Below are positions 2,776 to 22,899 of a stretch of 37,289 bases of DNA, in pieces. A program made the translations under genes and the position numbers. Numbering within the stretch: position 1 is the first letter of the stretch; every line of letters begins with the position of its first letter. The DNA lies in IMG/VR virus record IMGVR_UViG_3300041955_000143, positions 1 to 37,289 of that record; one strand, 5' to 3'. The DNA comes from a virus (taxonomy: Duplodnaviria; Heunggongvirae; Uroviricota; Caudoviricetes). The notes beneath the pieces are model-generated. The model had not been told where the DNA came from, made no database searches, and worked only from the letters and a program-made list of their open reading frames with translations.

Positions 2776-4554
2776 TTAAAGGTTGCTACCAGCCGGGGCG
2801 TAGCACGACGTACCGGCACCGAGCGAGTATCCTGGCGCGGTCGTGTTGCCGCTCACAAGATTGTTCGCCACTATGCAGCCGCTAGATGTTCCAGCATCTA
2901 CGATGACGCCGTAGCCAGCGTTGGCAGTAGCGGTATTCCCCGTTATGCTGAAATCGGTAACATTAGCCGCGACCTCTATGCCATGCTTGCTAGCGGTCGT
3001 CAGCCCGTTGTTGTTGAACACGTTGCCGACGAAGACGACGCGAGTGCCGCCGTTGACCAACACCCCATCATTACCGTTGTTTATGAAAAGATTTCCCTGG
3101 AACGTATTGCTGTCGCCAGCCGTATGTGTAAGCCCCGGATAACCAGCGCCCGTCCGTCCACCGCTGAACCAGTTTCCAGTAAAGGAATTGTTGCTTCCGT
3201 TTGTAATGACGGAACCTTGCGCCGAACTGTCAAAAAATGCACCTTTAATTAGATTAAATTGGGGTTCGTTACCGCCATTTGGCGCTATCTCCAGTGCGTA
3301 CTTTGCGCCGTTGTACCACTCGCCGCCGACAATCGAGTTGCCTTGCGAGGCTCCATATATGTACAGATCTGCTTCGGTCGCGCCGTTCAGTACGGTGACG
3401 TTCGTCAGCGCATTATTTGCGGCGGTGGCAATATCTATTCCGATGTACGTTGGGCTGAGAACTTCAACATTCGTCGTCACAGACGTATTGTTGCCGTTGT
3501 AATAAATGCCGATCCAAGGCTGATAGATATTAACGTCGCGAATCACTGGATAGTTCTGACTTCCGGAGGCGCCAGCAGTCACGCATATTGCGGCGCCATT
3601 ACTTGCATCCCCGCCGCATGAGCCGCCAGTGGTGCCAGCGCTGCTATAATTTATATTGAAGTTGGAAAGAACGACGTTGGTGTGCGAAACGATAATTCCG
3701 GTCGCCGTCGCGCTGGTGACGCTGACGATCGAGCTCGGACCATCACCAGTAATGCACGTTCCGGCGGCGGGGGTGACGGCGGCAGAGATGGCGACGGTTG
3801 TTCCACCGGGAATATAGACGCAGCCGACACCACTTGCCGCAGTCAGCGCAGCGGCCAAGCTGACGTAATTGTTGACGTTGTACCAAGCAGCACCGCAGAG
3901 ACCGCCGCTGACAAGTCCGGCCGAACTCGCCTGCAAACACTGCGTCAATCCGGTCACGCTGCCGAGCGTCAACGCGCCAGTAATCGTCGTGACGGGAGTG
4001 ATCGTCACTCGTCCCGTTGAGATAGAACCGATGCCGATGGTGCCGCTGCCCTTGGCGTTCAGCGTCAGGTTCTCATTCGTTCCGGTTGACAATACAGAAA
4101 CGGCAACGCCGCCCGTTGCGGCAGCGCTTTTGATATTCAGCCCGGTAACCGCGCTAGAAGTCGAAGCATCCACATTGAGCGAGGGGTTTGTCGTGCCGTT
4201 TGGGCCAACAGAAAGCGCATTGGCGCTGACCGAAGTCAGATTAACCGTATTGCAAGCGAGAGTGGTCGATCCCGTCGCGACTGTGCAAACATTGCTGCCG
4301 GACTTGTTCTTGAGCGTGAAGTCACTAACGCTGCCTTGGCCAATAATGGCCGCGCCGATAGTGCCGCCGCCGCCGAAAGTTGCCTGTCCGTTAGAGCTGA
4401 TCGTTGCCAAGCCACCAGAAAACAGCACTGGGTTGGGCAGCACCAGCGGATTATTCATAAGCTGACCCGGCACGGTCGTCACGCTCGCGGCCTGAGCGTG
4501 CGCCAGCGTGGGCGCAACGAGCAGAGTGAGAGCGATGAACAAGCGAGCGAGCAT
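2776..4554 (-). CDS. Tailspike-like protein with right-handed beta-helix (pectin-lyase-like) and N-terminal signal peptide
   Basis: MLARLFIALTLLVAPTLAHA|QAA; YNVNNY...GCVYIPGG beta-helix start; Asn-rich repeats (TGNWFSG, QGNLFINN, VGNVFNNN, ANNLVSGN). Confidence 0.75.
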   Translation of the reverse strand: MLARLFIALTLLVAPTLAHAQAASVTTVPGQLMNNPLVLPNPVLFSGGLATISSNGQATFGGGGTIGAAIIGQGSVSDFTLKNKSGSNVCTVATGSTTLACNTVNLTSVSANALSVGPNGTTNPSLNVDASTSSAVTGLNIKSAAATGGVAVSVLSTGTNENLTLNAKGSGTIGIGSISTGRVTITPVTTITGALTLGSVTGLTQCLQASSAGLVSGGLCGAAWYNVNNYVSLAAALTAASGVGCVYIPGGTTVAISAAVTPAAGTCITGDGPSSIVSVTSATATGIIVSHTNVVLSNFNINYSSAGTTGGSCGGDASNGAAICVTAGASGSQNYPVIRDVNIYQPWIGIYYNGNNTSVTTNVEVLSPTYIGIDIATAANNALTNVTVLNGATEADLYIYGASQGNSIVGGEWYNGAKYALEIAPNGGNEPQFNLIKGAFFDSSAQGSVITNGSNNSFTGNWFSGGRTGAGYPGLTHTAGDSNTFQGNLFINNGNDGVLVNGGTRVVFVGNVFNNNGLTTASKHGIEVAANVTDFSITGNTATANAGYGVIVDAGTSSGCIVANNLVSGNTTAPGYSLGAGTSCYAPAGSNL

Positions 4555-4555
4555 G

Positions 4556-5161
4556 TTACTGTCCTGTGTTCGTCAAGAGAAGTTGATGGCCGGTAGAAGA
4601 GCTAGTCGGAGTGTAAATTATCTGGATAACACCGCCAAAGCCAGAGCCGCCAAGACCGTTAGGATTGCCTGCGCCACCACCACCACCGTAACCCGTCGCA
4701 TCGCCGCCGCCAGAGCTACCGCCTTCCCCCGCTGGGGGATTCGGATAGTTGCCCGCGCTGCCGCCTGGACCACCTTGGCTGGTACTGCCGCCAGAGTACT
4801 TAATAGTCCCAGTTCCACCACTGCCGCCAATAGTACCGTGGCCGGCTGGGGCACTGAGGATAGCTCCGAAAGTTGCGGCTTGACCGCTGCCAGGAGCGCC
4901 GGAAGAGTATGCTATGTTCGCGCCAGGAGTGACGGCGTAGTTGTCTATCTCATCCCAGGCACCGCCACCGCCGCCGTTACCAGGGTTGAGCGCATCGCCA
5001 TCAGTGCCATTAGCTCCAGGCCCGATGGCGATGGCGCTGGTGATTAAAGTACAATTTGCCGGGACGGTCCAATTTCCGTTTCCCGTCAGCGTGACAGTTA
5101 CCGCGAACGCACTGACGCTCCACAGCGAGAACAGCAAGGCGATGAGAAGTCGCTTAATCAA
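4556..5161 (-). CDS. Glycine-rich virion-type protein with signal peptide (TTG start)
   Basis: MIKRLLIALLFSLWSVSAFA|VT; WTVPANC...GPGANG...GGGGGA and GGSGFGGVIQIIY typical of phage Gly-rich domains; TTGA overlap with upstream stop. Confidence 0.7.
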   Translation of the reverse strand: MIKRLLIALLFSLWSVSAFAVTVTLTGNGNWTVPANCTLITSAIAIGPGANGTDGDALNPGNGGGGGAWDEIDNYAVTPGANIAYSSGAPGSGQAATFGAILSAPAGHGTIGGSGGTGTIKYSGGSTSQGGPGGSAGNYPNPPAGEGGSSGGGDATGYGGGGGAGNPNGLGGSGFGGVIQIIYTPTSSSTGHQLLLTNTGQ

Positions 5162-5979
5162 AGTGAGTTGTATCCTTGGCCATTGCAGTAGATCGTAGCA
5201 GCGTTTGCGCTAAGCGTTGCGGTTAGCGCACTGTTGGCGCTATTTGATCTGAGCGGAACAGGGAAGGTGACATTTGTTCCACCTCCTGCGGGGACTATAA
5301 ATACACTCCCAGCAGTATCGTTCAACAGTACGGTGATAGTTGTTGCGCTTGTATTTGAACATTGCATCGAAGTCAGATATTCGTAAACGCTTGCCGTACC
5401 GCTTGCAGCAAGCAACGTAATTGTCGTTCCTGTGACAGATGATTGACCTCCGCTGCGCGACATCATCGCCCTCGGCGCGTAGGGCACATTCGTCAGTTTG
5501 CCGTCGAGGTCGGCTACGCATCCGGCCAACTGCCCGGTCGTTACCGCGGTCTGCTGCGTGCTTAGTCCGGCGCAGCCGCCGAGCCTCGCGTTCGCTGGCA
5601 GCGTGCTCGCGGTCGCACCGATGGCCCAGTTCGCCGCAGTAGTCGGATTGACCGTGCCGATCGCGGCGGTCCCCGCGGTGATCTGCGCGAAGATCGGATT
5701 GCCGGAAGCGTTTACCGCGTTGCCTTGCAGGAGGTTTGTGTAGGAACCGTTGGTCGCGGAGATGGCCGAACCGCCAATCGTGTTGGCGGTCAACAGATCG
5801 CCGTTCACGGTGCATTGCAGCAGGCTTCCTTGCCCGTTCAGTAGTGTCTGTCCGCTCGCAATATATTGGCACCCGGTCACGCCGCGCGGGATGCCGCTAA
5901 GACCGGGAAGCTGGGCGAGTTGCGCGTTCGCTACGGACGGCGCGAACAGCAGTAGAAGCGTAATCAGCAACCGTCTCAT
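5158..5979 (-). CDS. Exported-type beta-rich structural protein (273 aa)
   Basis: MRRLLITLLLLFAPSVANA|QL; C-terminal small beta-sandwich (YEYLTSMQCSN...FPVPLRS...IYCNGQGY). Confidence 0.65.
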   Translation of the reverse strand: MRRLLITLLLLFAPSVANAQLAQLPGLSGIPRGVTGCQYIASGQTLLNGQGSLLQCTVNGDLLTANTIGGSAISATNGSYTNLLQGNAVNASGNPIFAQITAGTAAIGTVNPTTAANWAIGATASTLPANARLGGCAGLSTQQTAVTTGQLAGCVADLDGKLTNVPYAPRAMMSRSGGQSSVTGTTITLLAASGTASVYEYLTSMQCSNTSATTITVLLNDTAGSVFIVPAGGGTNVTFPVPLRSNSANSALTATLSANAATIYCNGQGYNSL

Positions 5980-5989
5980 TGCGGTATCC

Positions 5990-6484
5990 TTAATAGTCTA
6001 GGCAGGTCACTTGGGCGTTGATGACGGCGCTGCCCGTGACAAATGCCGAAGCAAAAGTCGCTTGCAGCGTATCTCCGTTTATCAAGGTGACGTAGGCGTT
6101 ACCGTTTTGATCCACAGCAAGGCCGGGCCAGTTGCCTGCCGAGCTTATCGGAACAGGAGGAATGCCCGTAGCGAAGCCCGCACCGGCTGGAAGCGTCACG
6201 GCGGTCCCGCCATACAGGACTGTTGAATTGACAACCTGCACCGTGAGCAAATGTGGCGTTGCCGCTTCGCTATTTGTTGCCCATAGGCCGAAACAAATCG
6301 AACCATTCGCGCCACCAGTGTAGAGCGTCTTGTAGGTTCCCGCAGCATCGGTCCCTTGCTTGAACTGCACGACGCCCCGACTTGGGTTTTGTGCGCTGAT
6401 GATACTATTCGCTGTCACACCAGCAGCCTCGGCGCCCGATATTCCGAGCGCGAGGAAAGCCGCAATAATCAATCGTCCAAACAT
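5990..6484 (-). CDS. Exported-type beta-rich structural protein (164 aa)
   Basis: MFGRLIIAAFLALGISGAEA|AG; beta-strand-rich, in fibre cluster. Confidence 0.65.
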   Translation of the reverse strand: MFGRLIIAAFLALGISGAEAAGVTANSIISAQNPSRGVVQFKQGTDAAGTYKTLYTGGANGSICFGLWATNSEAATPHLLTVQVVNSTVLYGGTAVTLPAGAGFATGIPPVPISSAGNWPGLAVDQNGNAYVTLINGDTLQATFASAFVTGSAVINAQVTCLDY

Positions 6485-6485
6485 T

Positions 6486-8828
6486 TCATATCCCTCCTAG
6501 AGCGAGAACGGCGAGCGTACTAGCGGCTTGAACGTATTTAGATTCACGCGCGAACGCGAGATTCGCGCTGGTGATCTGTGTTGCTGCGAAACTAAGCGAA
6601 CTCACCGCCTCGTTTTGTAGCACATGGCTTGAATCGGTCGTTAGAAGGTAGGCTGTCGTCGACCCGGTAACCGTCGTCGAGTTGATGGCAACGCTCGTTG
6701 CTACACCGCATGATTGCTGTCCAAGCACGGGCCCAGCGGCGACATAGAGGCAATCGCCTGGAGTTCCGTTCGTTACTGTTGTCGCTCCGCCACCGACTAC
6801 GATTGCCGTCGCGGGAGAGCCGATAACGGAAAGTACGCCGGAGCCGTCAATGGCGATGCTTGTCCCATCCGGCTTGCTGCATCCAACCAAGCCCGTTCCG
6901 GTCACGGCCGTCGCGGTGACGCAGTTCAATGTCGTGCTCGAGAACGCCAACGTCACGCCAAGAGTAATGCCTTCTGCATTTGCGGGCGATCCTGTTGGAT
7001 TGCCGACGAGAGAACTCGCCGCAACTTGCTGGAACTTCGCGTATGTAACCGCATTCGCCGCGATAGTTGCCGCCGCGCTGCCCGGGCCGCTCGCCGTAAC
7101 ATCGCTCGTCAGTGCGGTTATGCCCGCCGCAGCGAACGCACCAGTCCCTAATGCGCCGCCTGCTCCGCTCGATGTGATCGCGCTGCCGACGCCGATTGTC
7201 GTATTCGCCAGCGCGGTCGTGCCGGTCACTGCCAGCGCATTTGAGCCAATGGTGGCCCCACCGATCGCGAGAGACGTCGCTGTCGCTACGCCCAATGCTG
7301 GAGTGACGAGCGATGCCCCGGTCGTCGCTACGAGATTGCCAGAGCCGTTTAACGTCGCGGCACTGATAGCAGTGCCGTTGCCCTGTAGGATGCCTGTGAT
7401 GGTGGTCTGTATCGAGATTGCTGGTGTTGTTTGGTAAGTTGCGACAACCCCAGCGAAGCCATTGACCGAGGTCACGCTGACGCTAGTGACGGTGCCAGTG
7501 GAGAGGGAAGCGGTCCCCCAAGTGGCATAGACGGTGTTCTGCGCTAAGATCGGATTGGCGAATGTCACCACGCCGGTCGAGAGGTTAACTGTCCAAGCAG
7601 ACGGTGCGGGCTGTGCGACACCATCCTCGAAGATTTCGAGGACGGCTTGGCTCGCGGGCAGACTAGAGAGTGTGAGTTGGCAATTCGTTATAGGAGAACA
7701 TGCCGCACCAGGAGTGTAATTGACGTTGGCGACAAACGTCTGGTTATGCCAAGTGCTGCCGCCTCCACCGCCGCCGCTGCCGCAGGCACTACCAGAATCC
7801 GCGACACCACCAGCTATGCCATTAGGTCCAGCGGCGACTTGGATACAGTCGCCGGGAACAAACGAGCCGACCTGAAACGCTAAATTACTGGCGACGGGAG
7901 GCAATCCAATGAGATTGCCGTTATAGGTTAGCGTAGCGCCACCGACAATGGTTAGCCCGGTAATGATCGAAACGGAGGTGAATGCTGCACTGTTCGGCGT
8001 ACCGCCAACGCCGATGGGTGGCGGTGTGAGAAAATTCTGTGTGGCGAAAGTACCGAGGCCGAGATTGCTGCGGGCCGTGGCAAAGCTCGTCAGGTCGCTC
8101 AAATTATTCGTTGTTACAAGCGCATTGGTGATGCCGTAACCAGCAACCGTGGTCGGTGTCGAGCCAATCTGTGCGAAAGTGTAATCCCCGCTTTGCGCGA
8201 CGACGGCCCCGGCACGTCCGAATACAGAGGTGACGAGCCCAGCCCCGACCAGCGCGCTCTGAACGAATTGGTCTGTCGCAAGTCTTGTGCTATTATCCCC
8301 ATTACTTTGCGTCGTCCCGGTCACCCCGTTCGGCAATGCGGTGGACATGGAAAGCGCACCAGCAGATCCGGAGACCAGTACGCTATTATTCGCCCCGACA
8401 ACCTCGACAAGCGCACCGCCATTGTCCGCAAGTAACCTGTTGGCCGCGCCGCCAGTGATCGGCGTGCTGTTGACAATAAGGGTTCCGCTACCGCCGCCAG
8501 GCTGCCATGAGGTCAGCCCTGCGCCGTCCGTCGTCAAGACGAAACCATTGGTGCCCGCGTTTACCGGCAGGGTAAAAGTCCATGAACCCGTCGCGGCCGG
8601 CGCTTGCACGGCAACAACGCCAAGCGACCCCGACCCGACAAGCCCGAGCGACCCTGTGACACCAGAGCTTCCAAGCGTCGGATTTGCGGTAGCGATTGGC
8701 GGGGCTTGGGAAATCCCTGGGTTGCCGCAAAGCTGGCCAGGCTGGAATTGGCCAGTACATTCGGCAAATGCGCTTGAAGTAATAAGCACGAAAAAAATCG
8801 CGAAGAATATAGTAGTGCGCAACCTCAT
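6486..8828 (-). CDS. Long tail-fibre-like protein with signal peptide (780 aa)
   Basis: MRLRTTIFFAIFFVLITSSAFA|EC; fibre motifs VTSVFGRAGAVVAQSGDY, NNLSDL, NAVTYAKFQQVAA, GTVTSV; Gly/Ser/Thr-rich. Confidence 0.7.
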   Translation of the reverse strand: MRLRTTIFFAIFFVLITSSAFAECTGQFQPGQLCGNPGISQAPPIATANPTLGSSGVTGSLGLVGSGSLGVVAVQAPAATGSWTFTLPVNAGTNGFVLTTDGAGLTSWQPGGGSGTLIVNSTPITGGAANRLLADNGGALVEVVGANNSVLVSGSAGALSMSTALPNGVTGTTQSNGDNSTRLATDQFVQSALVGAGLVTSVFGRAGAVVAQSGDYTFAQIGSTPTTVAGYGITNALVTTNNLSDLTSFATARSNLGLGTFATQNFLTPPPIGVGGTPNSAAFTSVSIITGLTIVGGATLTYNGNLIGLPPVASNLAFQVGSFVPGDCIQVAAGPNGIAGGVADSGSACGSGGGGGGSTWHNQTFVANVNYTPGAACSPITNCQLTLSSLPASQAVLEIFEDGVAQPAPSAWTVNLSTGVVTFANPILAQNTVYATWGTASLSTGTVTSVSVTSVNGFAGVVATYQTTPAISIQTTITGILQGNGTAISAATLNGSGNLVATTGASLVTPALGVATATSLAIGGATIGSNALAVTGTTALANTTIGVGSAITSSGAGGALGTGAFAAAGITALTSDVTASGPGSAAATIAANAVTYAKFQQVAASSLVGNPTGSPANAEGITLGVTLAFSSTTLNCVTATAVTGTGLVGCSKPDGTSIAIDGSGVLSVIGSPATAIVVGGGATTVTNGTPGDCLYVAAGPVLGQQSCGVATSVAINSTTVTGSTTAYLLTTDSSHVLQNEAVSSLSFAATQITSANLAFARESKYVQAASTLAVLALGGI

Positions 8829-9819: not shown

Positions 9820-9826
9820 CGCGCTC

Positions 9827-10024
9827 TTACAGTCTCTCTTTCGTTCTCTCTTGTTTCTTTACCCACGCCGCGAAATGCTCGTCCTGCAAGTGCGCCTCCC
9901 AAGCCTTATCGTCAATCTGGCCAGTTTGGCGACAGGCGAGGATCATATCATAGCGCGTCGATTTCGTCGCCCGATCTGGAATCGCGGCTTCGGCGGCAGA
10001 TATGGCATCGTTCCATTCGGTCAT
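9827..10024 (-). CDS. Small conserved-type phage protein (65 aa)
   Basis: Start re-called at ATG 10024 (TGATG overlap); RYDMILACRQTGQI...HLQDEHFAAWV. Confidence 0.6.
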   Translation of the reverse strand: MTEWNDAISAAEAAIPDRATKSTRYDMILACRQTGQIDDKAWEAHLQDEHFAAWVKKQERTKERL

Positions 10025-11790
10025 CAGTAGTACGGCACATAACGCGCCGTCCCCGCCACGTTCACGACGATACAACCCGTCACGCTGCCGCCGCCGCAGT
10101 TGCTCGCCGCCGCGACCGTGCTACCATAGCCGATCTGATTGGAGCTGACAGTGGGGGCAGCAGCAGTTGCCACCAATCCAGACGAAGTAAAAATCCCAGA
10201 GGAATTTATCGAAGCTACTTTTGATGAAAGATACCAAAAGGCCGTCGTGTTTGCCGAGACAATATCCAGTTGCCCCGCTGAAACGCCTAATCCGTAAATC
10301 ACAGTACTATCAAGCAGTTTCAATTTAAGTCCAGTCCCGGCAGCGCCGGAATAATCATTGCCGAGAGAAATAGCATTTGGCGATGCGACCCCCGCTGGGG
10401 CAGCACCAGGAGTACCAAAACTCAGAACGTCACCATTCCCCACCGAACCAGTATCGTAGGCAAGAATGCCGGATGATGTCTGGTAATTCCAACTCGATCC
10501 CGTTCCTGCCGTCGGTATGGCTGTTCCGTTATTAATATCGAGCATTTGAATCGCGTTGCTGACGGCACCCGTCACACCGGCATCGCCCGTGCCTTGCGCG
10601 TAAACTGTCGGAGCACTCCCATCGCCATAGCCGCATCCAAGCCATCTAAAGATATTTCCATAAGCGCCCTGGCTCGTGGAACTGTTTAGCCCACGCATCA
10701 GCAAACAGTTTCCCGTGCCGCCAGCGGCTCTGAAAGTTCCCAGCCAAATGATATTGCTGTCGGCCCAGCCCATGTCTACGGCTAGGCCGTTATTGTAAAC
10801 GATATTCCAAGTGACGTTCGGCGATCCAGAGAAATCGGCATTCGTGCTGCCGAGAACCTGAATTGCCTTGGCGGTTGTGGTCAACTGATAAACAAGAAAA
10901 TTCATATACCCGCGCTGCAACTGCACATCGCACTGCGCGAGATTGGTGCCGGTTATACAAGACAAAATCTCGATGTTTGAAACTGAACCTGCGGCCTCGA
11001 TTGAGGTCAGATCGTAAGTGCCCTGCGAAACGCTATCAATAACGAGATTCTGCGTCGCTTCCGAATTTCCGTTGATCGTGAAGCCAACAAAGCCGCCGCC
11101 GAGATTTTCCGGCGTCGATCCAGTTCCATACGGCGTTCGGTGCTTTAGTGCGACGCCAGAGAATGTCGGTAAGAGCACGGTGGAATAGACACCGTTCGGA
11201 CAGGCGCGGACGAGCACGCCTGAAACATTGTTGTCGATAGTCGCGCCGAAATAGAGATTCCCGCCGCACGGCAGTTGCACGGTGCCGCCGCCTGCTGCAC
11301 CGAGCGTTTGTATCGCCGCGTTAATCGCAGTAGAATTTGCAGAGGCAGATCCGCTGCTATTGAGAGTCACAGTTGGCGTAAGCAGCGCGTTACCAGAGGC
11401 ATTAAGATTTCCTCCCACATTCAAATTCCCCGCAATCCCGGCCCCGCCAGCTACAATGAGCGCGCCAGTGGTCGGAGAGGTAGAGGCGGCTCCAGTTATC
11501 ACTGGATTTGAAAGGTAAAGATTGTTGATCGGCGTACCGCTGACTCCTACCGTCCCGCCAAGCGGAACTGGTGTCGATCCCAACGTCAGCCCAAGCCCAG
11601 CCGCAGAAATAAGCGTCGATCCGAGAAGCCGCTTCGATATTCCGCCTTGCAGCAGATAGAAGGAGTCGCTAGGATTCAGCGCAGAAGCCGTTGGCAGCGA
11701 GCCAACATAAGACGGGAAAGTCTGCGACGTCTGCGCCAGAGCAGGAAATGCCGAGAACAGAAGCGCAATGACGGCGATGATCTTTCTCAT
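10024..11790 (-). CDS. Tailspike-like beta-helix protein with signal peptide (588 aa)
   Basis: Start re-called at ATG 11790 (ATGA overlap): MRKIIAVIALLFSAFPALA|QT; NSTAINAAIQTLGAAGGGTVQLP beta-helix cap; C-terminal CIVVNVAGTARYVPYY. Confidence 0.75.
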   Translation of the reverse strand: MRKIIAVIALLFSAFPALAQTSQTFPSYVGSLPTASALNPSDSFYLLQGGISKRLLGSTLISAAGLGLTLGSTPVPLGGTVGVSGTPINNLYLSNPVITGAASTSPTTGALIVAGGAGIAGNLNVGGNLNASGNALLTPTVTLNSSGSASANSTAINAAIQTLGAAGGGTVQLPCGGNLYFGATIDNNVSGVLVRACPNGVYSTVLLPTFSGVALKHRTPYGTGSTPENLGGGFVGFTINGNSEATQNLVIDSVSQGTYDLTSIEAAGSVSNIEILSCITGTNLAQCDVQLQRGYMNFLVYQLTTTAKAIQVLGSTNADFSGSPNVTWNIVYNNGLAVDMGWADSNIIWLGTFRAAGGTGNCLLMRGLNSSTSQGAYGNIFRWLGCGYGDGSAPTVYAQGTGDAGVTGAVSNAIQMLDINNGTAIPTAGTGSSWNYQTSSGILAYDTGSVGNGDVLSFGTPGAAPAGVASPNAISLGNDYSGAAGTGLKLKLLDSTVIYGLGVSAGQLDIVSANTTAFWYLSSKVASINSSGIFTSSGLVATAAAPTVSSNQIGYGSTVAAASNCGGGSVTGCIVVNVAGTARYVPYY

Positions 11791-13965: not shown

Positions 13966-14136
13966 GGTCTCGGCCCTTTCGCCTTTTGGGCGGTTATATC
14001 ATATCGGGCGATTCTCGGCCATTGGCGTTATTTTTCGTCTCAATCGTGCCATGGCAATTCTGGGGCTCTGACGCATAGATCGAGGAACACCGCCAGACAG
14101 ACCACGACGAAGATCAGGAGCATCATCATTTCAGCC

Positions 14137-16839
14137 TCATGGCGTCGTATAGGTTGTGAATGCGTTATAGGCCGTGCTTGGCTGCGTGTAGATGTTCGAC
14201 GTGGCTGTGGGCCACAAACTCCATTGAATCTGCTCGGAAACCATTTGAAACACCGCTGGGGCCAGAGAACTTGGATATGCAGCAAAGGCATCAAAGTCGT
14301 TGGTTAGCAATGTCGCGTAGGCGGTACTCAGATGGTAAGAGATCAACAGGCTTTGAAACTCGTTTGCTAAACACGCTTCCGCAAGAGCAACTGTTCCCTG
14401 AATAGCGGCAGTACAATTATCCGTTCCGCCAGAGGCGTAGGCCGGAATGTTCCAAGTGGATGACGAACCAAACGACGTATTCCAAGTGTCGATGTTGGTG
14501 GCAGATGGCCCTATGTCCTGAAACCATCCCTCATATTGCCACACGCCGCGAATAGTGCAGTTCGGTGTCGCGGCGCACGATCCGGTCGCGTATTTCACCG
14601 CCAAAGCATTGAAAAAGTAGAAATAGCCCTCGCTGGTGCATGGTGCTGAATATGTGTTGGTGGCTTCCACACAATCCAATGTATTCCCGCTCTTTGACGC
14701 ACCGCCACCGGTGGCTATTTGGCCGTGGTTCACATCGTAGTCAACGAACGTCATCGCCGCCGCTAACTGGCTTCCGGTATTCGTGCATCCGTTCCCAAGC
14801 GCCCCGCCGCCGCAACTATCTGCCGCCTGAAACAATGTAAGCGTCTGTCCGGTCTGCACGGTCGCATAATAGCTGCCGGTTCCGTTAAGCAGTTGTGGCC
14901 CCGATCCGGTAGTCTGAACTGAAAGAATCTGAGCGCCGTTTAGATACGGCGCATAGCTTAAATCGTCCATCTGGTCGCACACCGGGCAATGCGTCGGGGA
15001 TGAACTCGAATAATTGGTTGCTATCGCACCGCTCGATAGCGTCAGAGTAGTGCTCCCAACCGTCGTTGCCTGATTGACGCACCAAGACGTGCTGCTGTTC
15101 TTGTAGATAACAATGAGAGGAAGCGAAGTGCCGCCGTTCGGTATCACTTGCATTCCTAGTTGAATACCCGTTCCTGAATTAACCGTCATCGTTCCGGTCG
15201 GGGAAAGCGTGCTGGAAATTCCTGCGCAAGCAGTGGTCGATACCGACCCGGTAACGCTGACCGGCGAAGCCCCAGCTCCTAATGTAAAATTATTGCTGCT
15301 GTCAAACGTCAGATCATTTCCAAGCAACCGCAGATTTTCGACTATACTTCCAGTGCAGGTACACGTTTCCATGCGCTCCAAGTCTGTCATTGACCGGCCA
15401 GCGGCAACCCACGCGGCAGATACCAGTTGCATCACGAGATAACGATTGTACGCGTACTCGTCGTAGGCTAGTTCGTTGACACCACTGGTCGCCGGAAACC
15501 CTCTCTGCAATCCACGCACTTCCGCCCGCTCGGTCTGATAATTCTGGAAATTGAATATCTCATTGCTGTATTCGGGAAACCACTTAAGCCCCTTGACGAG
15601 AGCGGTCGCCATGTAGGTTGCAAACGACGTGATAGAAGCCGAATCGGCTACAGGATCAAAGAACGTCGGAATCTGCACCCAACAGTTCGTGTGCGTCACG
15701 TTGCACAGTGCGACCGTGACAGCAATAGGCACGCCCTGCGTCACCCCATTATTGTTCCAGTAGGTCCAGACTTGAAGATAACTGTCATAGACAAACGTGT
15801 GCATCGTGCTGGCGCTGATCTGATGCAAGGTAAGCGTCTGCGCTCCATAGAGTTGCGCGATGGGTTTGGCCCCAAGTCCGCACCAGTTGATCGTTGGCGC
15901 TAGAGTGTTAGTTACGTCCAACTCGCCTTGGATTATCGCGCCAGTCAGAGTACCCGGGCAAGAGCATGTTCCGCCAGAACAATTTGCGATGTAATTCGTG
16001 CCGCCGCCGGAACTGTTGATGCTCCCTGTGTACCAAGATTGATTGAAGGAAGCGTTCAGATTGTAGCTGAATGAATTGAGACTCGCCAAGTTGGCCCAAC
16101 TCGATACATTGCCATTTGACGTGTCTGTCCAATTGAGAAAACGCAAGACGCGAGGATTTAGCGACGAGCACGCCCCATAATAACTGCACGGCGGCGTACC
16201 GCCCGGTGCTGTCGAGATCAAGGAAACAAAATCTGGATTAAAGCAGATGCCGAGGCTGCAATTCGGCCCGACACCATTAGTTATCGTTGTCTCCTGACTC
16301 TCCAGTCCCATCATAGCGTTGCCGTCACCGCTATATGATCCCGTCGTCGGCAGAGTGACCGTTATCTGTGTTGGATATGCCGAATTGAAATGAAAAATGA
16401 AGCGACAGGCACCAGCGCCAGTCCCGGTAAATGTCGATCCGCTGAATGAGCAGCCCGTCCCTGTTGTACTGGTGACCGTAACGCCACCGCCACCTGTTAT
16501 CCTGAAGGTCTGCGGCCCAGTTGACCATTTGATGAACAAGTCAGACGAACCAATGTCGCCGTTGCCTGTTCCGTTTGGAATGTAGATATTGCAAGTAAGG
16601 TCAGTTCCCGGCGCGGAAGTCGCGTAGAAATCGGCATTCAAAACTGATATGGCGGAAGAACTAAATGGGCTGCACGACTTGAACCAATTAGCGAAGGCGA
16701 AATCGCCGCCTTGGATTGGACCAAGATCAAGAACTGCTGGTACAGCCCCGACCGGAGTTATCGCGCTGGGTCCAGAGCCATGTGTCCAGCCGCCAAGTGA
16801 AAGGCAGAGCAGGCAGGCTATGGTGCGCGCGAGCTTCAT
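14137..16839 (-). CDS. Large exported-type Cys-rich protein with putative glycoside-hydrolase-like TIM barrel (900 aa)
   Basis: MKLARTIACLLCLSLGGWTHG; FNPDF...VLRFLNW, GVPI..TVALCN...WVQIP, PEYSNEIFN resemble an uncharacterised clan-A-like GH or cellulose-binding-protein family. Confidence 0.6.
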   Translation of the reverse strand: MKLARTIACLLCLSLGGWTHGSGPSAITPVGAVPAVLDLGPIQGGDFAFANWFKSCSPFSSSAISVLNADFYATSAPGTDLTCNIYIPNGTGNGDIGSSDLFIKWSTGPQTFRITGGGGVTVTSTTGTGCSFSGSTFTGTGAGACRFIFHFNSAYPTQITVTLPTTGSYSGDGNAMMGLESQETTITNGVGPNCSLGICFNPDFVSLISTAPGGTPPCSYYGACSSLNPRVLRFLNWTDTSNGNVSSWANLASLNSFSYNLNASFNQSWYTGSINSSGGGTNYIANCSGGTCSCPGTLTGAIIQGELDVTNTLAPTINWCGLGAKPIAQLYGAQTLTLHQISASTMHTFVYDSYLQVWTYWNNNGVTQGVPIAVTVALCNVTHTNCWVQIPTFFDPVADSASITSFATYMATALVKGLKWFPEYSNEIFNFQNYQTERAEVRGLQRGFPATSGVNELAYDEYAYNRYLVMQLVSAAWVAAGRSMTDLERMETCTCTGSIVENLRLLGNDLTFDSSNNFTLGAGASPVSVTGSVSTTACAGISSTLSPTGTMTVNSGTGIQLGMQVIPNGGTSLPLIVIYKNSSTSWCVNQATTVGSTTLTLSSGAIATNYSSSSPTHCPVCDQMDDLSYAPYLNGAQILSVQTTGSGPQLLNGTGSYYATVQTGQTLTLFQAADSCGGGALGNGCTNTGSQLAAAMTFVDYDVNHGQIATGGGASKSGNTLDCVEATNTYSAPCTSEGYFYFFNALAVKYATGSCAATPNCTIRGVWQYEGWFQDIGPSATNIDTWNTSFGSSSTWNIPAYASGGTDNCTAAIQGTVALAEACLANEFQSLLISYHLSTAYATLLTNDFDAFAAYPSSLAPAVFQMVSEQIQWSLWPTATSNIYTQPSTAYNAFTTYTTP

Positions 16840-19463
16840 TGCAGCGTCGGGTGCTGGAAGGCGTTGGCCATAAGGTGATTAGCATACTGCGTCGGATGCA
16901 AGTTATCTTGTGTACAGGATTGAACAACGACCGTATTGAAACACCAATAGTATGTCCCGCCAGGGATATAGGCCGAACTGAATACATTTACCGGAGAGCC
17001 GCCTTGGAGGTCGAAATTTCCTGCGTAAGTGCTGCATCCAGTACAGCCACCGGCAACTAGGATTGCTGCGGTGTTGCCTTTGATCCAGGTATTCACCGTG
17101 TCGTTGACCGTGTAGGCAGAATTAAGCGTCTGACCTGCGATGCTTGTGAAAGTGTCTGATCCGGTCGTTTGTGTGTAGGTTGTTGTCTGCCATACTGGAC
17201 CGCCAGAACCACCGAGCAACTTTGACGAGAATGCGTATGCCTTCTGTGCATTGGCCTCGACCGTCGCTGCGCTGTTTGTATCCTGGAAGATATCATTACC
17301 GCCGTACATCACGAACATGCCAGAACAGTAGGCTAGTTCCGCAAGTCTGTTCGGGCTTGAGTTCGCTACCGTGTAATTGTTAAGCGCATCGCCACCGTCA
17401 GACTGATTAAGCACAGGATAGTACGGTTCTACGATCCGTTCGACATCGCCAAGCATACCTTCCGCGTCGTCTAGCGCATCGAGATAAGAGAAGGATCGGC
17501 TGTCGCCAGCAATGCAGTAGGTATGCTGCGTCGTCGGCCCGATAATGGCATCAGGATAGTAATAGGCGCTCCCGGTGTTAGAGGTAATTGCGGCACAGTC
17601 GGTCGTGTGGTCGCCTGGATCGCTGCCGCTGATCGTCGTGACCTCGTTAGGATGGCCAAGACCATCCTTGCTACTGTCGCGAAAATTGGTGTTGCCTTGA
17701 AAGACAAGGCCATTTCCGTTGTTGCGCCACACACGAACCCAAAAGTCCTGTCCTGCCGGTATCGTGATGGATAAAGAATCCGAGTAAAGCGTACTGACAG
17801 CCCCGGTACTTCCCTCAGCAATGCCGCTAAACAAGACCTGCGTACAAGTACCAAGCGGGTATTCAATCCCCGCCGTCATGTTGGTCGTTCCGCTCGGCCC
17901 TGTTTCTGCGCTTGGCGCGTTTGGATGATAATAGTTAGCAAGCGCGAGTTGCAGCGAAGTGATATTCTCCATCGCGCGGTGGTGCGAGCGAGACATCGAA
18001 TAGGCGCTGCTTGTCGTGGTCGGATTGCGCGTGTGATTGGCGACAATGCCGGTGTAGGAAGCAATCGGGGCAAGCACGTTCGAGTTATTCGTCGCCGTCA
18101 CCATTGCGGTATCGCTGCGGGTGTTCCACACCGTCAGATTGGCGATGACGCAATCGCAATAGTTGGAGCCAGAAGCGCAGGCGGCGCTGGATGAAAGCGA
18201 CCCGATACATTCCAGCGTGGACGCACCGATGCCATTGCTGTCGGAGACGGACACGCCGTTTAGCGCCAAGACGCGCCCGCTGCCATCGGCGCTCAGGCCG
18301 AAGTAGTTGGTGTTGTAATAGCGCGTTATCACTCCCGCAGTGTGTTTCCCGGTCGTGACGGGCCAATTCGTATAAGCCGTGCGGGCTACCGTAGAACCGT
18401 CGCCGTTGCCGAGCGCCGTAAGAGCAGTACTGGAACTGACAACCCCAAGGATCGTATGCGCGAGCGGTGCGGTGGCTGACGTATTGAGTGATTGGTCCTC
18501 GGCAAATTCCGCCGTCTGCGCGACGACACGCAGCGCGGAGCCTTCCAGCATCGTTTTCAGAGCACCGCTAGCGGTAATGACATCGGCATTGCAGGTGCCG
18601 ACAGATGACGGGCAATATGGTAGCCACGTCGTACCGACCTTTACGTCAACCCCAAACGCGAGAAGCGTCGAGCCGCCGCTGACGTTCTGCGATGTATAGC
18701 TCGGCCCCGGCGTGTAAAGCTGCGGGATGCCGTTGACCATCGCGACGTGGAGACTGACGCTGGACGTTCCGGTCGCGAGAGCGATGTAGCCGATGCGGCA
18801 CCACGTCTTGCCGCCGTAGGAGAATTTCTTGGGCTGGAATACCTTGATATTGCTGCCGGTGGTCAGCCCGCCGCCGCCATTGCCAGCGAGGATGTAACAG
18901 TTGGCCGCATCAAAATCGACGCCGCTTTTCAGCGAAGCCGTTGCAATACTCAATGCGCCGTAACTGCACTCCTGTGTCGTCACACCGCTGGCGCATGTCC
19001 CCGCCGCGAAGAAGCCGGAGACGACATAGTAATTTCCGCTTGTGACCGAGAACGAGATATTAGCGAAATGTGCGCCGCTCGATGTGTCGTCGGTTAGAGT
19101 GAAGGCGTTACTATTGCCGTCAGGCCCTGTTGCGCCAGTGGAAAAGGACGCAAGCCCGGTATTACTCCAATTAGTCGTATCCTGTGAATCAGTGATTAGG
19201 TTTGTGCCAGCCTGATAGACTTGTAAACCTTCGCTGGTGATGCAGGCATTCCCCGCCGAGGCGTAGGTGATCGCGCCCCCGATAGTCTCGCATGTCTCTT
19301 GCGTGGCTCTAGTGATGCTCAGACATGATGTTATGGTCGAGCAGTTTGTCGCCGCGCTGGTTGCGAAATTAAGCTGAATGCTTGATGGGCTGCTAGCGCC
19401 TGGAATGCCGTGCGTCCATGCAGCAAGACTGAGGATCAGCAGGATTGCAATGCGCCTTAACAT
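16836..19463 (-). CDS. Large exported-type protein with C-terminal SGNH/GDSL esterase domain (875 aa)
   Basis: MLRRIAILLILSLAAWTHG; IAGDSRS (block I), GGD (II), YGGNDI (III), DNLHP (V); N-terminal LITDSQDTTNWS and lectin-like beta regions. Confidence 0.75.
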   Translation of the reverse strand: MLRRIAILLILSLAAWTHGIPGASSPSSIQLNFATSAATNCSTITSCLSITRATQETCETIGGAITYASAGNACITSEGLQVYQAGTNLITDSQDTTNWSNTGLASFSTGATGPDGNSNAFTLTDDTSSGAHFANISFSVTSGNYYVVSGFFAAGTCASGVTTQECSYGALSIATASLKSGVDFDAANCYILAGNGGGGLTTGSNIKVFQPKKFSYGGKTWCRIGYIALATGTSSVSLHVAMVNGIPQLYTPGPSYTSQNVSGGSTLLAFGVDVKVGTTWLPYCPSSVGTCNADVITASGALKTMLEGSALRVVAQTAEFAEDQSLNTSATAPLAHTILGVVSSSTALTALGNGDGSTVARTAYTNWPVTTGKHTAGVITRYYNTNYFGLSADGSGRVLALNGVSVSDSNGIGASTLECIGSLSSSAACASGSNYCDCVIANLTVWNTRSDTAMVTATNNSNVLAPIASYTGIVANHTRNPTTTSSAYSMSRSHHRAMENITSLQLALANYYHPNAPSAETGPSGTTNMTAGIEYPLGTCTQVLFSGIAEGSTGAVSTLYSDSLSITIPAGQDFWVRVWRNNGNGLVFQGNTNFRDSSKDGLGHPNEVTTISGSDPGDHTTDCAAITSNTGSAYYYPDAIIGPTTQHTYCIAGDSRSFSYLDALDDAEGMLGDVERIVEPYYPVLNQSDGGDALNNYTVANSSPNRLAELAYCSGMFVMYGGNDIFQDTNSAATVEANAQKAYAFSSKLLGGSGGPVWQTTTYTQTTGSDTFTSIAGQTLNSAYTVNDTVNTWIKGNTAAILVAGGCTGCSTYAGNFDLQGGSPVNVFSSAYIPGGTYYWCFNTVVVQSCTQDNLHPTQYANHLMANAFQHPTLQ

Positions 19464-20701
19464 GCGCTGCTAATGCCCCAGTAGTTCGACGCATTGGTGC
19501 AATAGGTATTCACGTTGGCGGTCGTCAGTCCTGTGGTCCCAGCGTACCAAGCACCCTCGACAAAATAACCTGTGAGATAGTTCGATGCACAGGTTGCGTT
19601 ACCACCGATGCAAAAACCCGTACCGCCACTTGTCCCGACATTGACTGTCCCAGTTCCGGTGGTGCCGTCCCAATAAAGAGTGGCAGAGGTAGTTGGAAAC
19701 ATGGCAGCAATTACATGCCATGCCGCGTCGGTGACGCTGGCTGCTCCGGACGCCAGAGTTGTACCAAGATTGTAAAATCCTATTTCGCTGGTCGCCGCAT
19801 AAAATGACAGTAGATCATTCGTCTTGGAAATAACGTCCATTCTCGATGTGGAAGTGGGATTCCGGTTAGCTACGGCAATTAGATTGCCATACGTCGCGCT
19901 AGTTATCGTTGCTTTAAGTTGGGTAGAGTTAATGCCAATGAATTGCAGGCATGGTAGGCTTCCTATACAACTAAATGCGAGTGTTGGTTTTTGGGTATTT
20001 GTGGTAGACGTGGCATTATTGCTTCCCACTTGGTCATAAAGCGTACCAACAACGCAGTGGCCAGACGACGCGCCGCACCATGTCGGCAAATTAGTGGAAC
20101 CTGCACAATAAGTCGTCGTTAAATCCAACGCTCCATATATATTAGAAATGCCGGTGCAAGAAGAAGCGTAAGCATCTCCTGATCTCTGGAAAATCGCGAT
20201 ATTGGCGGTAGCTGCAGCCTGCGCTTGATTGTAGGCCCGTATCCCGTACCAATCGGTCGTGGATGCCGCGAGTGTCATATCGCCAGGGCCGAAATAATTC
20301 CCGGTGATCGTCTCGGCTTGCGTATATGGCGATCCTGTCGCACCAGCAATCGTATTGACGATATTGATGCTGTAGCTGCCTGCCTGCACGACGCCGTTGG
20401 TTTCCAGGCTGGTGCCGCTTATCTGGAAGCTAGCAGCATTAGTGCCGGAAAGCGTAAAAGCGTTCGCTGCACAACTTCCTGTCGTGCTTGAACTGATCGT
20501 CCCGATCACCGTGCCGCTTGATGCCGGGCCATTGAAAGTATTGGCACTGAGACTGACGGAGTTGATCGTGCAGGAACCGCCGGACGATTTAACTGTAAGT
20601 GCGTTTGTGTCCTGAAAGGTACCGGGGGCAAAACCCGGCAATACGGATGTCTGCCCTGACAACAACAGGGCTGCCAGGAGCGCAAAAATTACCTTCCGCA
20701 T
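19457..20701 (-). CDS. Exported-type protein with cadherin/Ig-like domain and ConA-like lectin domain (414 aa)
   Basis: MRKVIFALLAALLLSG|Q; SGTVIGTIS...FTLSGTNAASFQISG..L (cadherin-like); WYGIRAY, LYDQVG.NNAT, WHVIA, LYWDG, YFVEGAWY (LamG/AbfB-like). Confidence 0.65.
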   Translation of the reverse strand: MRKVIFALLAALLLSGQTSVLPGFAPGTFQDTNALTVKSSGGSCTINSVSLSANTFNGPASSGTVIGTISSSTTGSCAANAFTLSGTNAASFQISGTSLETNGVVQAGSYSINIVNTIAGATGSPYTQAETITGNYFGPGDMTLAASTTDWYGIRAYNQAQAAATANIAIFQRSGDAYASSCTGISNIYGALDLTTTYCAGSTNLPTWCGASSGHCVVGTLYDQVGSNNATSTTNTQKPTLAFSCIGSLPCLQFIGINSTQLKATITSATYGNLIAVANRNPTSTSRMDVISKTNDLLSFYAATSEIGFYNLGTTLASGAASVTDAAWHVIAAMFPTTSATLYWDGTTGTGTVNVGTSGGTGFCIGGNATCASNYLTGYFVEGAWYAGTTGLTTANVNTYCTNASNYWGISSAC

Positions 20702-22899
20702 TAGCTGAATTTCCCAACACAGACGACGCTGACGTTCGCGCCCGTTGTAACTTTCCAGGCTCCACTAACGCTCTTGGCTCCAACAGGAATTGTGAAGGGA
20801 ACGAGCGTAAGCAACGCCGTGGTGCCGCCACCTGGATAACTGTAGATCGCTGTTGAGTTATCCAGAATAGTTACAACACCTGGCGCAGTCGTCGCAGGAA
20901 CAATCGTGCAATGGGAGAGATAGTCACCAGTTGCCCCCGTCGAACTTTGTAATACTTGTGCTGTCTGCGAAGCAGCAATGGTCACATAGAAATTCGCTCC
21001 GTTAAATACTGGAACATTAGGCTGCTCTGCCGAATTGATCTGTACTACAACGGACGTATCGGTGGCGGCAGCAGCAGTCGAAGCCGCCTTCACCGTCGCC
21101 GCCGTGGTACACGGATTGGTCGCGCCGTTCCCACCATCGCAAAGACCCACGCCGCCGATAGGCACTTTGACAGCTTGCGAAGGAACCGCGCTCGTAATCC
21201 CGTTATAAATACCCTTGAGATAGCCATCGAGGCTGGTCGAACCAGAACCGGCATAGGCCGTATCCGTGCCGTTGGTGATATCCACGACCGCGCCAGAAGC
21301 GAGAGAGCCGGAAGCGTAGGCACCGGAAAGAACCGACCCGCTGACGAAGGCACCAGCGGACACGGCACCGGCTGCAATGGCCCCGCTGGCAATTCCCCCG
21401 CTCGCAATACTTACACTGATCGGCGTCATGCTGGCGATGCCTTGGACAGTCAATACGCCAGTGCCCGCCGAACCAGCAGTGCCCGTTGCTGCGCCGCCGA
21501 CCTTGCCGATGTTGACATAGGCCATACGGTCAATGGTCATCTGCACCGTGCAGCCTTTGCCGGTGGTGCAACTAGCACCGCCGCCAGAAACGTATTCACC
21601 GCCGACAGGCGTGAAACTGGTCGAAGCCTCGGTAAAGGTCGCGCCATCCGCTATTGCCGTTCCGCCAGAACCAGCCCCAGCCTTAATGTTCACATTAAGG
21701 TTGCCACTGGCATCCAGTTGCAATGCGGCCTGCTGGCCGGTCGTGAGGGTAACGCCGGCTGAAACGTACTCTCCACCAGCCAGCAACGAATTTGCCGCCG
21801 CTGTACCAGGAGCCTTCGATCCTTGGAAAGTCAGAAGATCAACCATTGCGCCAGTTGCAAATGCGCCAGAAACGACTTGCCCACTGGCAATCGAGACTGG
21901 CTGCGTAGCTTGATAGAATGTCCCAGTGACCGGAAAAGTACCGCCAGTGCCGGTAACAAGGAACGCATTGGTGTTCGACGCCGAATCTTTCAAATCAATC
22001 CGAACACCGCCGCTCGAGGGCGAGATGCTGAGCGCCCACAAGTCCCCATTCGTCGCTGTCGGGGCATTTGTCGAGGCAAGGCCCATAACGGGCGTGAACG
22101 TCTGGGCTGAATACGTTGCGCCCTGCGCTATCCCCGCCGGGGCGACACTCGCCGCGACATTGACCTTGAGAAAGCCATTGGCATCGCTTTGCAGGGCGGC
22201 AGATTGAGTATTTGTGACTGTGATAGGCGTGGAGTTATAAATTGCCCCGCCAACTAAAGCATTCGTTGGCGCGGATCCGGCGCCTACTGTCGCAAGTCCC
22301 CAAGTTGCAATCGTACCAGGATTTATCAGGAGCGGCGTCATGCTGGCGATGCCCTGTACGGTCAGGACACCAGTCCCGGCGCTTCCCGCTGTACCTGTCG
22401 CCGCGCCGCCGACCTTACCGATGTTTACATAGGCCATGCGGTCGATAGTCATCTGCACCGTGCAGCCCTTGCCCGTCGTACAGTTCGCACCGCCGCCGGA
22501 GACGTACTCGCCGCCGATAGGAGTGAACGAGGTCGAAGCCTCCGTGAACGTCGCACCATCAGCGATGGCTGTTCCTCCCGAACCGGCTCCGGCGACGATA
22601 TTAACCGGCAGGCCATGCGTCGCATCGACCTGCGTGCCGCTACCGCTCGCAGAACCGAACACTGGCTGGACGTAGAGGCCACCCCCGAGGCTTTCGTAGA
22701 TCGCGTTGGAACCGGGCGTAAGACCTGACGACAATGTGGCCGCCGCCGTCGCGCTGGTGGTCGCGCTGATCGAGCCGATTATCGGCATCGGATTGCCGGT
22801 GCTAACCGGGGCTCCGTTCACGATCGGAACGACGTTTTGCGCGTCTGCTCCGGCGCAAGCGAGGATCCAGAAGGCGAGGCCGACGATTATCCGTTTCAT
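20701..22899 (-). CDS. Exported-type fibre-like protein with internal ~87-aa duplication (732 aa)
   Basis: Start re-called at ATG 22899 (TGATG overlap): MKRIIVGLAFWILACAGADA|QN; Gly/Ala/Thr-rich; C-terminal small beta-sandwich. Confidence 0.7.
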   Translation of the reverse strand: MKRIIVGLAFWILACAGADAQNVVPIVNGAPVSTGNPMPIIGSISATTSATAAATLSSGLTPGSNAIYESLGGGLYVQPVFGSASGSGTQVDATHGLPVNIVAGAGSGGTAIADGATFTEASTSFTPIGGEYVSGGGANCTTGKGCTVQMTIDRMAYVNIGKVGGAATGTAGSAGTGVLTVQGIASMTPLLINPGTIATWGLATVGAGSAPTNALVGGAIYNSTPITVTNTQSAALQSDANGFLKVNVAASVAPAGIAQGATYSAQTFTPVMGLASTNAPTATNGDLWALSISPSSGGVRIDLKDSASNTNAFLVTGTGGTFPVTGTFYQATQPVSIASGQVVSGAFATGAMVDLLTFQGSKAPGTAAANSLLAGGEYVSAGVTLTTGQQAALQLDASGNLNVNIKAGAGSGGTAIADGATFTEASTSFTPVGGEYVSGGGASCTTGKGCTVQMTIDRMAYVNIGKVGGAATGTAGSAGTGVLTVQGIASMTPISVSIASGGIASGAIAAGAVSAGAFVSGSVLSGAYASGSLASGAVVDITNGTDTAYAGSGSTSLDGYLKGIYNGITSAVPSQAVKVPIGGVGLCDGGNGATNPCTTAATVKAASTAAAATDTSVVVQINSAEQPNVPVFNGANFYVTIAASQTAQVLQSSTGATGDYLSHCTIVPATTAPGVVTILDNSTAIYSYPGGGTTALLTLVPFTIPVGAKSVSGAWKVTTGANVSVVCVGKFS
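21422..21681 (-). repeat. Copy 2 of ~260-bp intragenic repeat
   Basis: Encodes AGAGSGGTAIADGATFTEASTSFTPVGGEYVSGGGASCTTGKGCTVQMTIDRMAYVNIGKVGGAATGTAGSAGTGVLTVQGIASMTP. Confidence 0.9.
22334..22594 (-). repeat. Copy 1 of ~260-bp intragenic repeat
   Basis: Same peptide with only I/V and N/S differences; many third-position DNA differences. Confidence 0.9.

Follow-up and report, generated by a model that had tools for sequence, protein, structure and literature searches.

Why should the genes around the tail adaptor of a tailed phage encode proteins with export signals and paired cysteines? The question is raised by the IMG/VR virus record IMGVR_UViG_3300041955_000143, of which positions 1 to 37,289 (37,289 nucleotides) were analysed and are called the window below. 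The window is the first 37 kb of the complete 101,289-bp genome, with direct terminal repeats, of an uncultured tailed soil phage with an HK97-type capsid, and all its real genes are on the minus strand. Ten genes flanking an SU10-type tail adaptor gene encode proteins that begin with a predicted signal peptide (SP), and that we designate by the window start coordinate of each open reading frame (ORF), from g2776 to g20701. Based on the number, the spacing and the evolution of their cysteines, we estimate at about 0.8 the probability that these ten proteins are exported and disulfide-bonded.

Signal peptides were called by a heuristic rule of our own, which demands an n-region with positive charge, a hydrophobic core of 10 residues and small residues at −3 and −1. 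All ten proteins satisfied it, with the full n-h-c layout and A-x-A sites at most of the predicted signal peptidase I cuts. Shine-Dalgarno motifs 5′ of the starts were weak throughout and gave no help in choosing among starts, and the choice rests on signal peptides conserved in homologues. A signal-peptide-like N-terminus was retained in every homologue with an intact N-terminus, even where the sequence had diverged.

A preliminary description of this DNA had counted by eye, in gene order from g2776 to g20701, 10, 1, 6, 2, 10, 8, 28, 22, 12 and 8 cysteines in the mature regions; a scripted recount gave identical figures. Nine of the ten are even, and the probability of at least nine even counts among ten is 0.0107, i.e. 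the 11/1024 that had been calculated. The close pairs it had quoted (CTTGKGC, CSPITNC, CSLGIC and CPSSVGTC) are all present, and its counts for the major capsid protein (MCP, 0 Cys) and for the 1815-aa internal protein (3 Cys) are correct. Taken alone, a parity p of 0.0107 is weak and post hoc, and the even counts could be put down to chance, or the cysteines to metal ligands, an idea to which a few CxC and CxxC motifs (436/438, 493/495, 618/621 and 807/810) lend some colour. As a control, SP-less ORFs of at least 100 aa with any Cys were counted in the same genome: 36 had an even and 32 an odd number. Cys is almost absent from the large virion proteins (0, 0, 2 and 3 Cys in 308, 781, 1311 and 1815 aa), and the Cys density of the mature SP proteins is 2.01%, against 1.37% for the other ORFs.

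The spacing of the cysteines was then examined by comparing the gaps within consecutive pairs (C1-C2, C3-C4 and so on) to the gaps between pairs (C2-C3, C4-C5 and so on), p values being combined by the Fisher method. Within-pair gaps were shorter in 8 of the 8 testable SP proteins, with medians of 8 to 19 residues against 30 to 148 between pairs; individual p values went from 0.001 to 0.2, and the combined p was 4.7×10−9. Applied to 18 SP-less proteins of the genome, the test gave p = 0.70, with no individual value below 0.05. Most pairs form isolated two-Cys loops of 5 to 25 residues along the chain rather than four-ligand clusters, for which reason an explanation by zinc fingers was rejected. 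With the controls flat for both parity and spacing, and the pattern replicated in four protein families and in relatives defined by synteny, chance or metal binding becomes a very improbable account of the even counts.

Homologues were informative on how the cysteines evolve. For g14137, a single homologue besides its own record was found among 5.8 billion proteins (P0002, 43% identity), and there were no relatives in viral contigs or in the phage collection. Four adjacent pairs are missing jointly from P0002 (194/199, 218/224, 618/621 and 723/734), no Cys is lost singly, and the other ten pairs are retained, two of them with small alignment shifts. For g16836, nine full-length relatives of 31 to 51% identity were available, eight of them with an intact N-terminus, each starting with a signal-peptide-like segment. 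Mature Cys counts in this family, query included, are 22, 20, 20, 16, 18, 16, 14, 16 and 18, all even. When the 11 consecutive pairs were scored sequence by sequence, 63 cells held both cysteines, 30 held neither and 4 a single one, and several of these single cells have a compensating new Cys nearby. The g19457 family (query and six homologues) carries a signal throughout, and its mature Cys counts are even in 7 of 7 cases (12, 12, 12, 10, 4, 12 and 4). Finally, in the related phage L061/L074 (96 kb, adaptor 61% identical), four SP proteins encoded upstream of the adaptor have 6, 4, 18 and 8 Cys. We conclude that the cysteines evolve as pairs, gained and lost together.

Do the pairs go with the place where a protein ends up, or with its export signal? 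Among relatives of the esterase domain of g16836, the even:odd ratio was 21:2 in SP-bearing proteins versus 51:37 in SP-less ones (Fisher p = 0.0018). The conserved N-terminal module of g2776 was found in 54 SP-less, Cys-poor, fibre-like proteins and in 10 SP-bearing proteins; the ratio was 9:1 in the latter, and 21:24 among the non-zero SP-less members, which typically have 0 to 2 Cys. At 66 metagenomic loci found via g22899, the gene directly upstream of the first SP gene, same-strand ORFs gave 21:3 when SP-bearing, one of the three odd proteins being due to a mis-set cleavage site, and 90:103 among non-zero SP-less ORFs. The gap test gave the expected direction in 14 of 15 SP-bearing metagenomic relatives (p = 1×10−9), and p = 0.27 in SP-less ones. 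Two short modules of g6486 (about residues 195-259 and 554-640) are 50 to 84% identical to fibre ORFs on 57 viral contigs. Most of these ORFs are SP-less, with 0 to 4 Cys in 300 to 1800 residues, and the four that are SP-bearing (on L003, L005, L047 and L062) have rows of close Cys pairs. The closest annotated relative, MW202675, has after its adaptor an SP-less fibre of 687 aa with 0 Cys. Since the SP-less fibres sharing these modules are Cys-poor although they too end outside the cell, pairing goes with the export signal, and this is what is expected if disulfides form while the protein folds in an oxidising compartment. Paired cysteines accompany the export signal, and not an extracellular destination as such.

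The combination of SP and paired Cys recurs in L005, L047, L062, L072, L079, L095 and L128. On three of these contigs, from other uncultured phages (L005:7016-10825, L047:9176-12838 and L062:1748-7314), it is the large fibre gene ending the tail module that has the signal peptide and the paired Cys. On L005 and L047 this is the only such gene within the stretch examined, and on L062 three SP genes follow each other.

The same comparisons bear on another reading of the locus, according to which the hydrophobic N-termini are not export signals, and the proteins fold in the cytoplasm as virion fibres whose Cys are oxidised by air after lysis. It agrees with the textbook assembly of tailed-phage tails in the cytoplasm, and it takes advantage of the fact that export is called here by a sequence heuristic. 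However, the related SP-less fibres, which are extracellular as well, are nearly Cys-free, with coin-flip parity and no pair spacing. Full n-h-c N-termini with A-x-A sites, kept in homologues despite divergence, are not accounted for either, and the cysteines come and go two at a time, as would structural disulfides required in folding. Air oxidation after lysis therefore seems to us improbable, if a little less so than chance. What is established here is how many cysteines there are, how they are spaced in pairs, that such pairs come and go together, and that pairing is linked to the SP; these results support the proposal of the preliminary description that the proteins fold oxidatively outside the cytoplasm and are truly exported. 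The reasoning is that dozens of neighbouring pairs that covary do not arise in proteins whose folding is cytoplasmic, and that SP-less relatives lack them, so that the signal peptides are most probably used.

The signal peptides have some peculiarities of their own. Four of the ten predicted cuts, or five by another of our counts, leave an N-terminal Gln (g2776 AHA|Q, g5158 ANA|Q, g10024 ALA|Q and g20701 ADA|Q), and an exposed Gln could cyclise to pyroglutamate, shielding the mature N-terminus. The signals of both g14137 and g16836 end in WTHG, with IPG/SGP coming after THG, and WTHG or SWHG also closes the signal of several distant homologues of the esterase family (P0013, P0037 and P0020). 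WTHG fits a signal peptidase site with T at −3 and G at −1, but its conservation is odd for a c-region.

How might such proteins mature? They would be made with cleavable Sec-type signal peptides, pass unfolded through SecYEG, and be cut by signal peptidase I, mostly at A-x-A. On emergence into the periplasm, they would be oxidised by a DsbA/DsbB-type system of the host. Disulfides would join mostly sequence-neighbour cysteines (C1-C2, C3-C4 and so on), the pattern to be expected from DsbA acting during translocation, and they would staple the loops of beta-rich domains that bind or act on carbohydrates: a beta-helix, a carbohydrate-binding module (CBM) with an SGNH esterase, lectin-like sandwiches and fibre modules. 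In this scheme, we infer that the proteins are translocated and cleaved, which oxidase acts on them, and where they finally reside once mature. Oxidation would presumably depend on host Dsb enzymes; the phage encodes no Dsb or thioredoxin family protein, as profiles PF01323 (DSBA), PF13462 (Thioredoxin_4) and PF00085 (Thioredoxin) had no match in the 101-kb genome, with controls positive, including the alphaproteobacterium Caulobacter. A clue to the host comes from a gene on an insertion element, whose best relatives (42 to 49% identity) are in Alphaproteobacteria, in Hyphomicrobiales and Xanthobacteraceae metagenome-assembled genomes (MAGs). It hints weakly at a diderm alphaproteobacterium, which tentatively would provide a periplasm. 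A spanin pair, sought as a sign of a diderm host, was not identified, and ORF 107-427 is without PHROG matches.

Several points weigh against the conclusion that the ten proteins are exported and disulfide-bonded. One of them, g4556, has a single mature Cys (C37) and is the sole odd member of the ten. The SP assignments rest throughout on a heuristic rule, the disulfide pairing is deduced from sequence spacing and covariation, and the homologue sets are not phylogenetically independent. The short CxC and CxxC motifs could bind metal instead of forming disulfides, and the hint about the host is, as said, weak. Finally, exported proteins encoded in a tail operon conflict with the cytoplasmic assembly of tailed phages.

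What the proteins are was examined gene by gene; all ten genes are on the minus strand. The best understood is g16836 (16836..19463, 875 aa, predicted signal peptide ending AAWTHG, 22 mature Cys). Its AlphaFold2 (AF2) model, built on a 100-sequence alignment (pLDDT 83, pTM 0.85), shows N-terminal beta-sandwich domains, then a CBM, then an SGNH carbohydrate-esterase domain, with residues 2-16 as a separate N-terminal helix. It matches phrog_8480 (E = 4×10−26), and Foldseek retrieved the carbohydrate esterases 9kr0 (E = 7×10−15) and 7toh (E = 4×10−12), together with baseplate and fibre proteins of the Pseudomonas phages Pa193/E217. The fold resembles acetyl-xylan and polyvinyl-alcohol esterases. 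The triad is intact (GDS 653-655, D853, H856), S655 being invariant in the 100 aligned sequences, with D853 found in 94 of them and H856 in 97. By sequence and model, g16836 is thus predicted to be a complete SGNH carbohydrate esterase. The profile of its family had no matches in the genome contigs.

Its neighbour g14137 (14137..16839, 900 aa, predicted signal peptide ending GGWTHG) has 28 mature Cys, the highest number of the ten, and 2 more Cys within the signal peptide; since these do not fit a lipobox, the possibility of a lipoprotein was rejected. ESM Atlas gave only leads, to bacterial hypothetical and cellulose-binding-type clusters (TM 0.4-0.55), which suggest some resemblance to secreted bacterial proteins of carbohydrate-binding type. 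The next gene, g19457 (19457..20701, 414 aa), has a predicted N-terminal signal, a weak ConA-like lectin signature and 12 mature Cys, including a C-terminal loop 401/414 that closes on the last residue. Several other SP proteins likewise end exactly on a Cys closing a short C-terminal loop (L061:5859-7004, L061:8537-9976 and P0005), and from the sequences such a C-terminal disulfide loop looks like a recurring design.

For g20701 (20701..22899, 732 aa), the longest ORF extends to 23193, and the signal peptide was placed at the internal start at 22899. Two cuts are candidates, ADA|Q or the lipobox-like ILA|C. WILA|C at residue 15 matches by eye a loose PROSITE-style lipobox, the ADA|Q site following five residues later, and the protein might be a lipoprotein with its first Cys acylated. 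There are 8 Cys past the signal (140/146, 444/450, 587/597 and 664/727) and 1 in the signal peptide, and the parity of the remaining 8 is unchanged by the choice of cut. Two copies of the loop CTTGKGC, at residues 140-146 and 444-450 and about 300 residues from each other, suggest that a domain has been duplicated within the protein. Over residues 175-400, g20701 shares 37% identity with a 738-aa SP protein of the relative L061; no relatives of g20701 were found in viral contigs.

On the other side of the adaptor, g2776 (2776..4554, 592 aa, predicted signal peptide at residues 1-20, AHA|Q) contains a right-handed beta-helix at residues 404-566 (PF13229, E = 1×10−10, 41.8 bits for a gathering cut-off of 25.9). 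Its 10 mature Cys fall in five neighbouring pairs (90/101, 206/220, 245/267, 313/324 and 560/584). The odd protein, g4556 (4556..5161, 201 aa, TTG start, predicted signal peptide SAFA|V), had no match in family searches except a weak one to phrog_4474. It is followed by g5158 (5158..5979, 273 aa, predicted cut ANA|Q, 6 Cys: 37/56, 136/154 and 207/265), whose C-terminal part shows weak similarity to the last part of the 738-aa protein of L061, and by g5990 (5990..6484, 164 aa, predicted cut AEA|A, 2 Cys at 64 and 161). The fibre-like g6486 (6486..8828, 780 aa, predicted cut AFA|E) has 10 mature Cys, again as five neighbouring pairs (24/34, 328/349, 377/383, 636/650 and 693/707), and no match in the relative G001/L061. 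Finally, g10024 (10024..11790, 588 aa) has, after a predicted signal peptide (ALA|Q), an N-terminal motif of fibre type. Its longest ORF extends to 11976, the signal peptide beginning at M63 of that ORF, and its 8 mature Cys form four neighbouring pairs (175/197, 278/287, 362/386 and 565/573). Over its first 88 residues, g10024 shares 40% identity with the SP protein encoded just upstream of the L061 adaptor. Together, the ten proteins have the appearance of a receptor-recognition set whose members bind carbohydrates or act on them.

Given such proteins, where would they go? They could be exported and disulfide-bonded without belonging to the virion. As enzymes and lectins that stay free in the periplasm or are released, they would remove or cover the polysaccharides that serve as receptors at the surface of the infected cell, so that there is less superinfection and less loss of progeny on debris. 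Sec export separates the proteins from a particle assembled in the cytoplasm, and the predicted complete esterase g16836 and the depolymerase-like beta-helix of g2776 are suited to such a role. SP-less tail parts are moreover available elsewhere in the genome, outside the window: a nozzle homologue (genome 47833-49908), which lies there with the portal, and a fibre-like protein of 307 aa (49919-50842). In the stretch examined, the relatives L059 and L060 have no large SP protein near their capsid and adaptor genes. Against this stands the position of the genes. The SP genes mostly abut or overlap each other and the adaptor gene lies within their run, which makes them part of the morphogenesis operon; they occupy exactly the position of the relatives' fibre genes, with overlapping stops and starts. 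In addition, modules or N-terminal motifs of g6486, g2776 and g10024 recur in ordinary fibres that are SP-less, the signal of L005 and L047 sits on the sole large fibre gene seen there, and ten genes are many for an accessory function. We see free enzymes and lectins as a serious candidate, at somewhat less than even odds.

The other destination is the virion itself. In this phage, as in a wider range of soil phages, the proteins that recognise the host would mature in the periplasm by Sec, signal peptidase and Dsb, and join the DNA-filled particle built in the cytoplasm only on rupture of the inner membrane by the holin or after lysis. As to virion fibres, the modules of g6486 and g2776 are common to many SP-less fibre-like ORFs, and the genes flank the adaptor. 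Tailed-phage tails, to our knowledge, assemble in the cytoplasm in every studied case, and we found no description of a two-compartment assembly route for Caudoviricetes. We hold this destination to be possible but rather doubtful.

The gene upstream of the SP run may provide a link to the particle. The 297-aa product of g22899 (22899..23792, minus strand) is a conserved all-beta protein with 2 Cys and no signal peptide, and its stop overlaps the start of the first SP gene. It has 66 metagenomic relatives, with 0 to 2 Cys in the homologues, and an SP gene lies immediately 3′ of it in L072, L074, L076, L083, L095 and L103. More widely, a g22899-like gene was observed directly upstream of the first SP gene at many loci among L072-L137, often with a stop/start overlap. 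The AF2 model (pLDDT 82) gave weak Foldseek matches to tail proteins and discoidin/CBM-like domains (best E = 8×10−4, TM < 0.25). The protein may be a particle-side partner of the exported proteins.

The remainder of the window is that of a phage that looks podovirus-like. The SU10-type tail adaptor (13285..13965, PF24175, E = 9×10−9) has 1 Cys and no signal peptide, and its counterparts on three related viral contigs are 61% identical. The MCP, of HTVC023P type (26990..27916, 308 aa), was identified by tblastn against annotated capsid proteins (best 59% identity), and the 1815-aa polyvalent internal protein (31409..36856), with PF18823 and PF18760, has a Cys content of 0.17%; the MCP and this protein served as cytoplasmic controls for the Cys counts, and all three genes are on the minus strand. 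Four homing-endonuclease genes, three of HNH type and one GIY-YIG, break up the structural operon (8825-9334, 12257-13285, 25868-26881 and 30487-31524, minus strand), two of them between SP genes. Downstream of the endolysin (1493-2626 of the window), a small ORF (603-1079, minus strand) encodes a protein with a signal-peptide-like beginning, 6 mature Cys and weak PHROG matches of HNH-nuclease type; this might be a nuclease-like protein that is secreted, or an accessory factor in lysis. Beyond the window, more small signal-peptide-like ORFs are found at G000:C1 46381-46782, 51678-52262, 67949-68503, 85540-85968, 91462-91989 and 92712-93308, with 6, 1, 3, 8, 2 and 3 mature Cys, respectively. 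The second of them carries a twin-arginine (Tat-like) SRRxFL motif and adjoins the genes of the nozzle region.

How unusual is all this? Exported proteins are known to favour even numbers of Cys, and this preference is an established means of predicting DsbA substrates (Dutton et al. 2008 PNAS, as cited in PMC7678975). The present proteins resemble such substrates in having an SP and even mature Cys counts, with no such bias in the cytoplasmic proteins of the same genome. The rule was drawn from bacterial proteomes, whereas here it applies to a run of ten genes in a tailed-phage morphogenesis operon and to phage relatives, with an unusually clean layout of consecutive pairs. The rule itself is therefore known, and the new and unusual part is its application to proteins of a tailed-phage tail operon.

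One exported receptor-binding protein is known from other phages. The pIII (g3p) protein of filamentous phages has a Sec signal peptide and forms periplasmic disulfides before joining the virion, but the assembly of inoviruses takes place at the membrane, without a capsid in the cytoplasm, while the present phage is tailed, with an HK97-type capsid and a particle built in the cytoplasm. Among tailed phages, the spanins Rz/Rz1 and the SAR endolysins are exported and use periplasmic disulfide chemistry. They are small, act in lysis, and have disulfides that are intermolecular or regulatory, in contrast to large multi-domain fibre-like proteins with many structural pairs; none of the three cases is a large fibre-like protein of a tailed phage. 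With its CBM, SGNH domain and Ser-Asp-His triad, g16836 is similar to the esterases and depolymerases of phage tailspikes and fibres, as are g2776 by its beta-helix and the whole group by its position in the tail operon. The SP-less phage fibre relatives found here differ by the lack of a signal peptide and by their few Cys, a comparison limited to these relatives.

The closest working analogue for exported fibre-like proteins is the family of mosaic adhesive trimer (MAT) fibres of Bdellovibrio bacteriovorus, which have a signal peptide, and disulphides in the solved tip domains (Caulton et al. 2024, PMC10769870). They are phage-tail-fibre-like and mosaic, with swapped tip domains, and show that fibre architectures can be exported and oxidised. 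They are cellular proteins of a predator, with no linkage to capsid or adaptor genes, and the likeness drawn here is one of architecture. Signal peptides have been noted on Porphyromonas phage genes of unknown function, not tail fibres (Matrishin et al. 2023). Our literature searches returned no description of SP-bearing, disulfide-paired tail-operon proteins in Caudoviricetes, and nothing on signal peptides of tailed-phage fibres.

The finding is a solid supporting line for an unusual phenomenon, not a new principle. In practice, a signal peptide plus paired Cys could flag this class of proteins in annotation pipelines, and to produce such receptor-binding proteins or depolymerases recombinantly, one would have to express them in the periplasm or under oxidising conditions. 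For the biology of these phages, the Cys pattern provides independent, sequence-only evidence that the signal peptides of a tail operon are used. It raises the question of what links a particle assembled in the cytoplasm to fibre-, lectin- and esterase-like proteins that are exported; if these do join that particle, this would amount to a two-compartment route of virion assembly.

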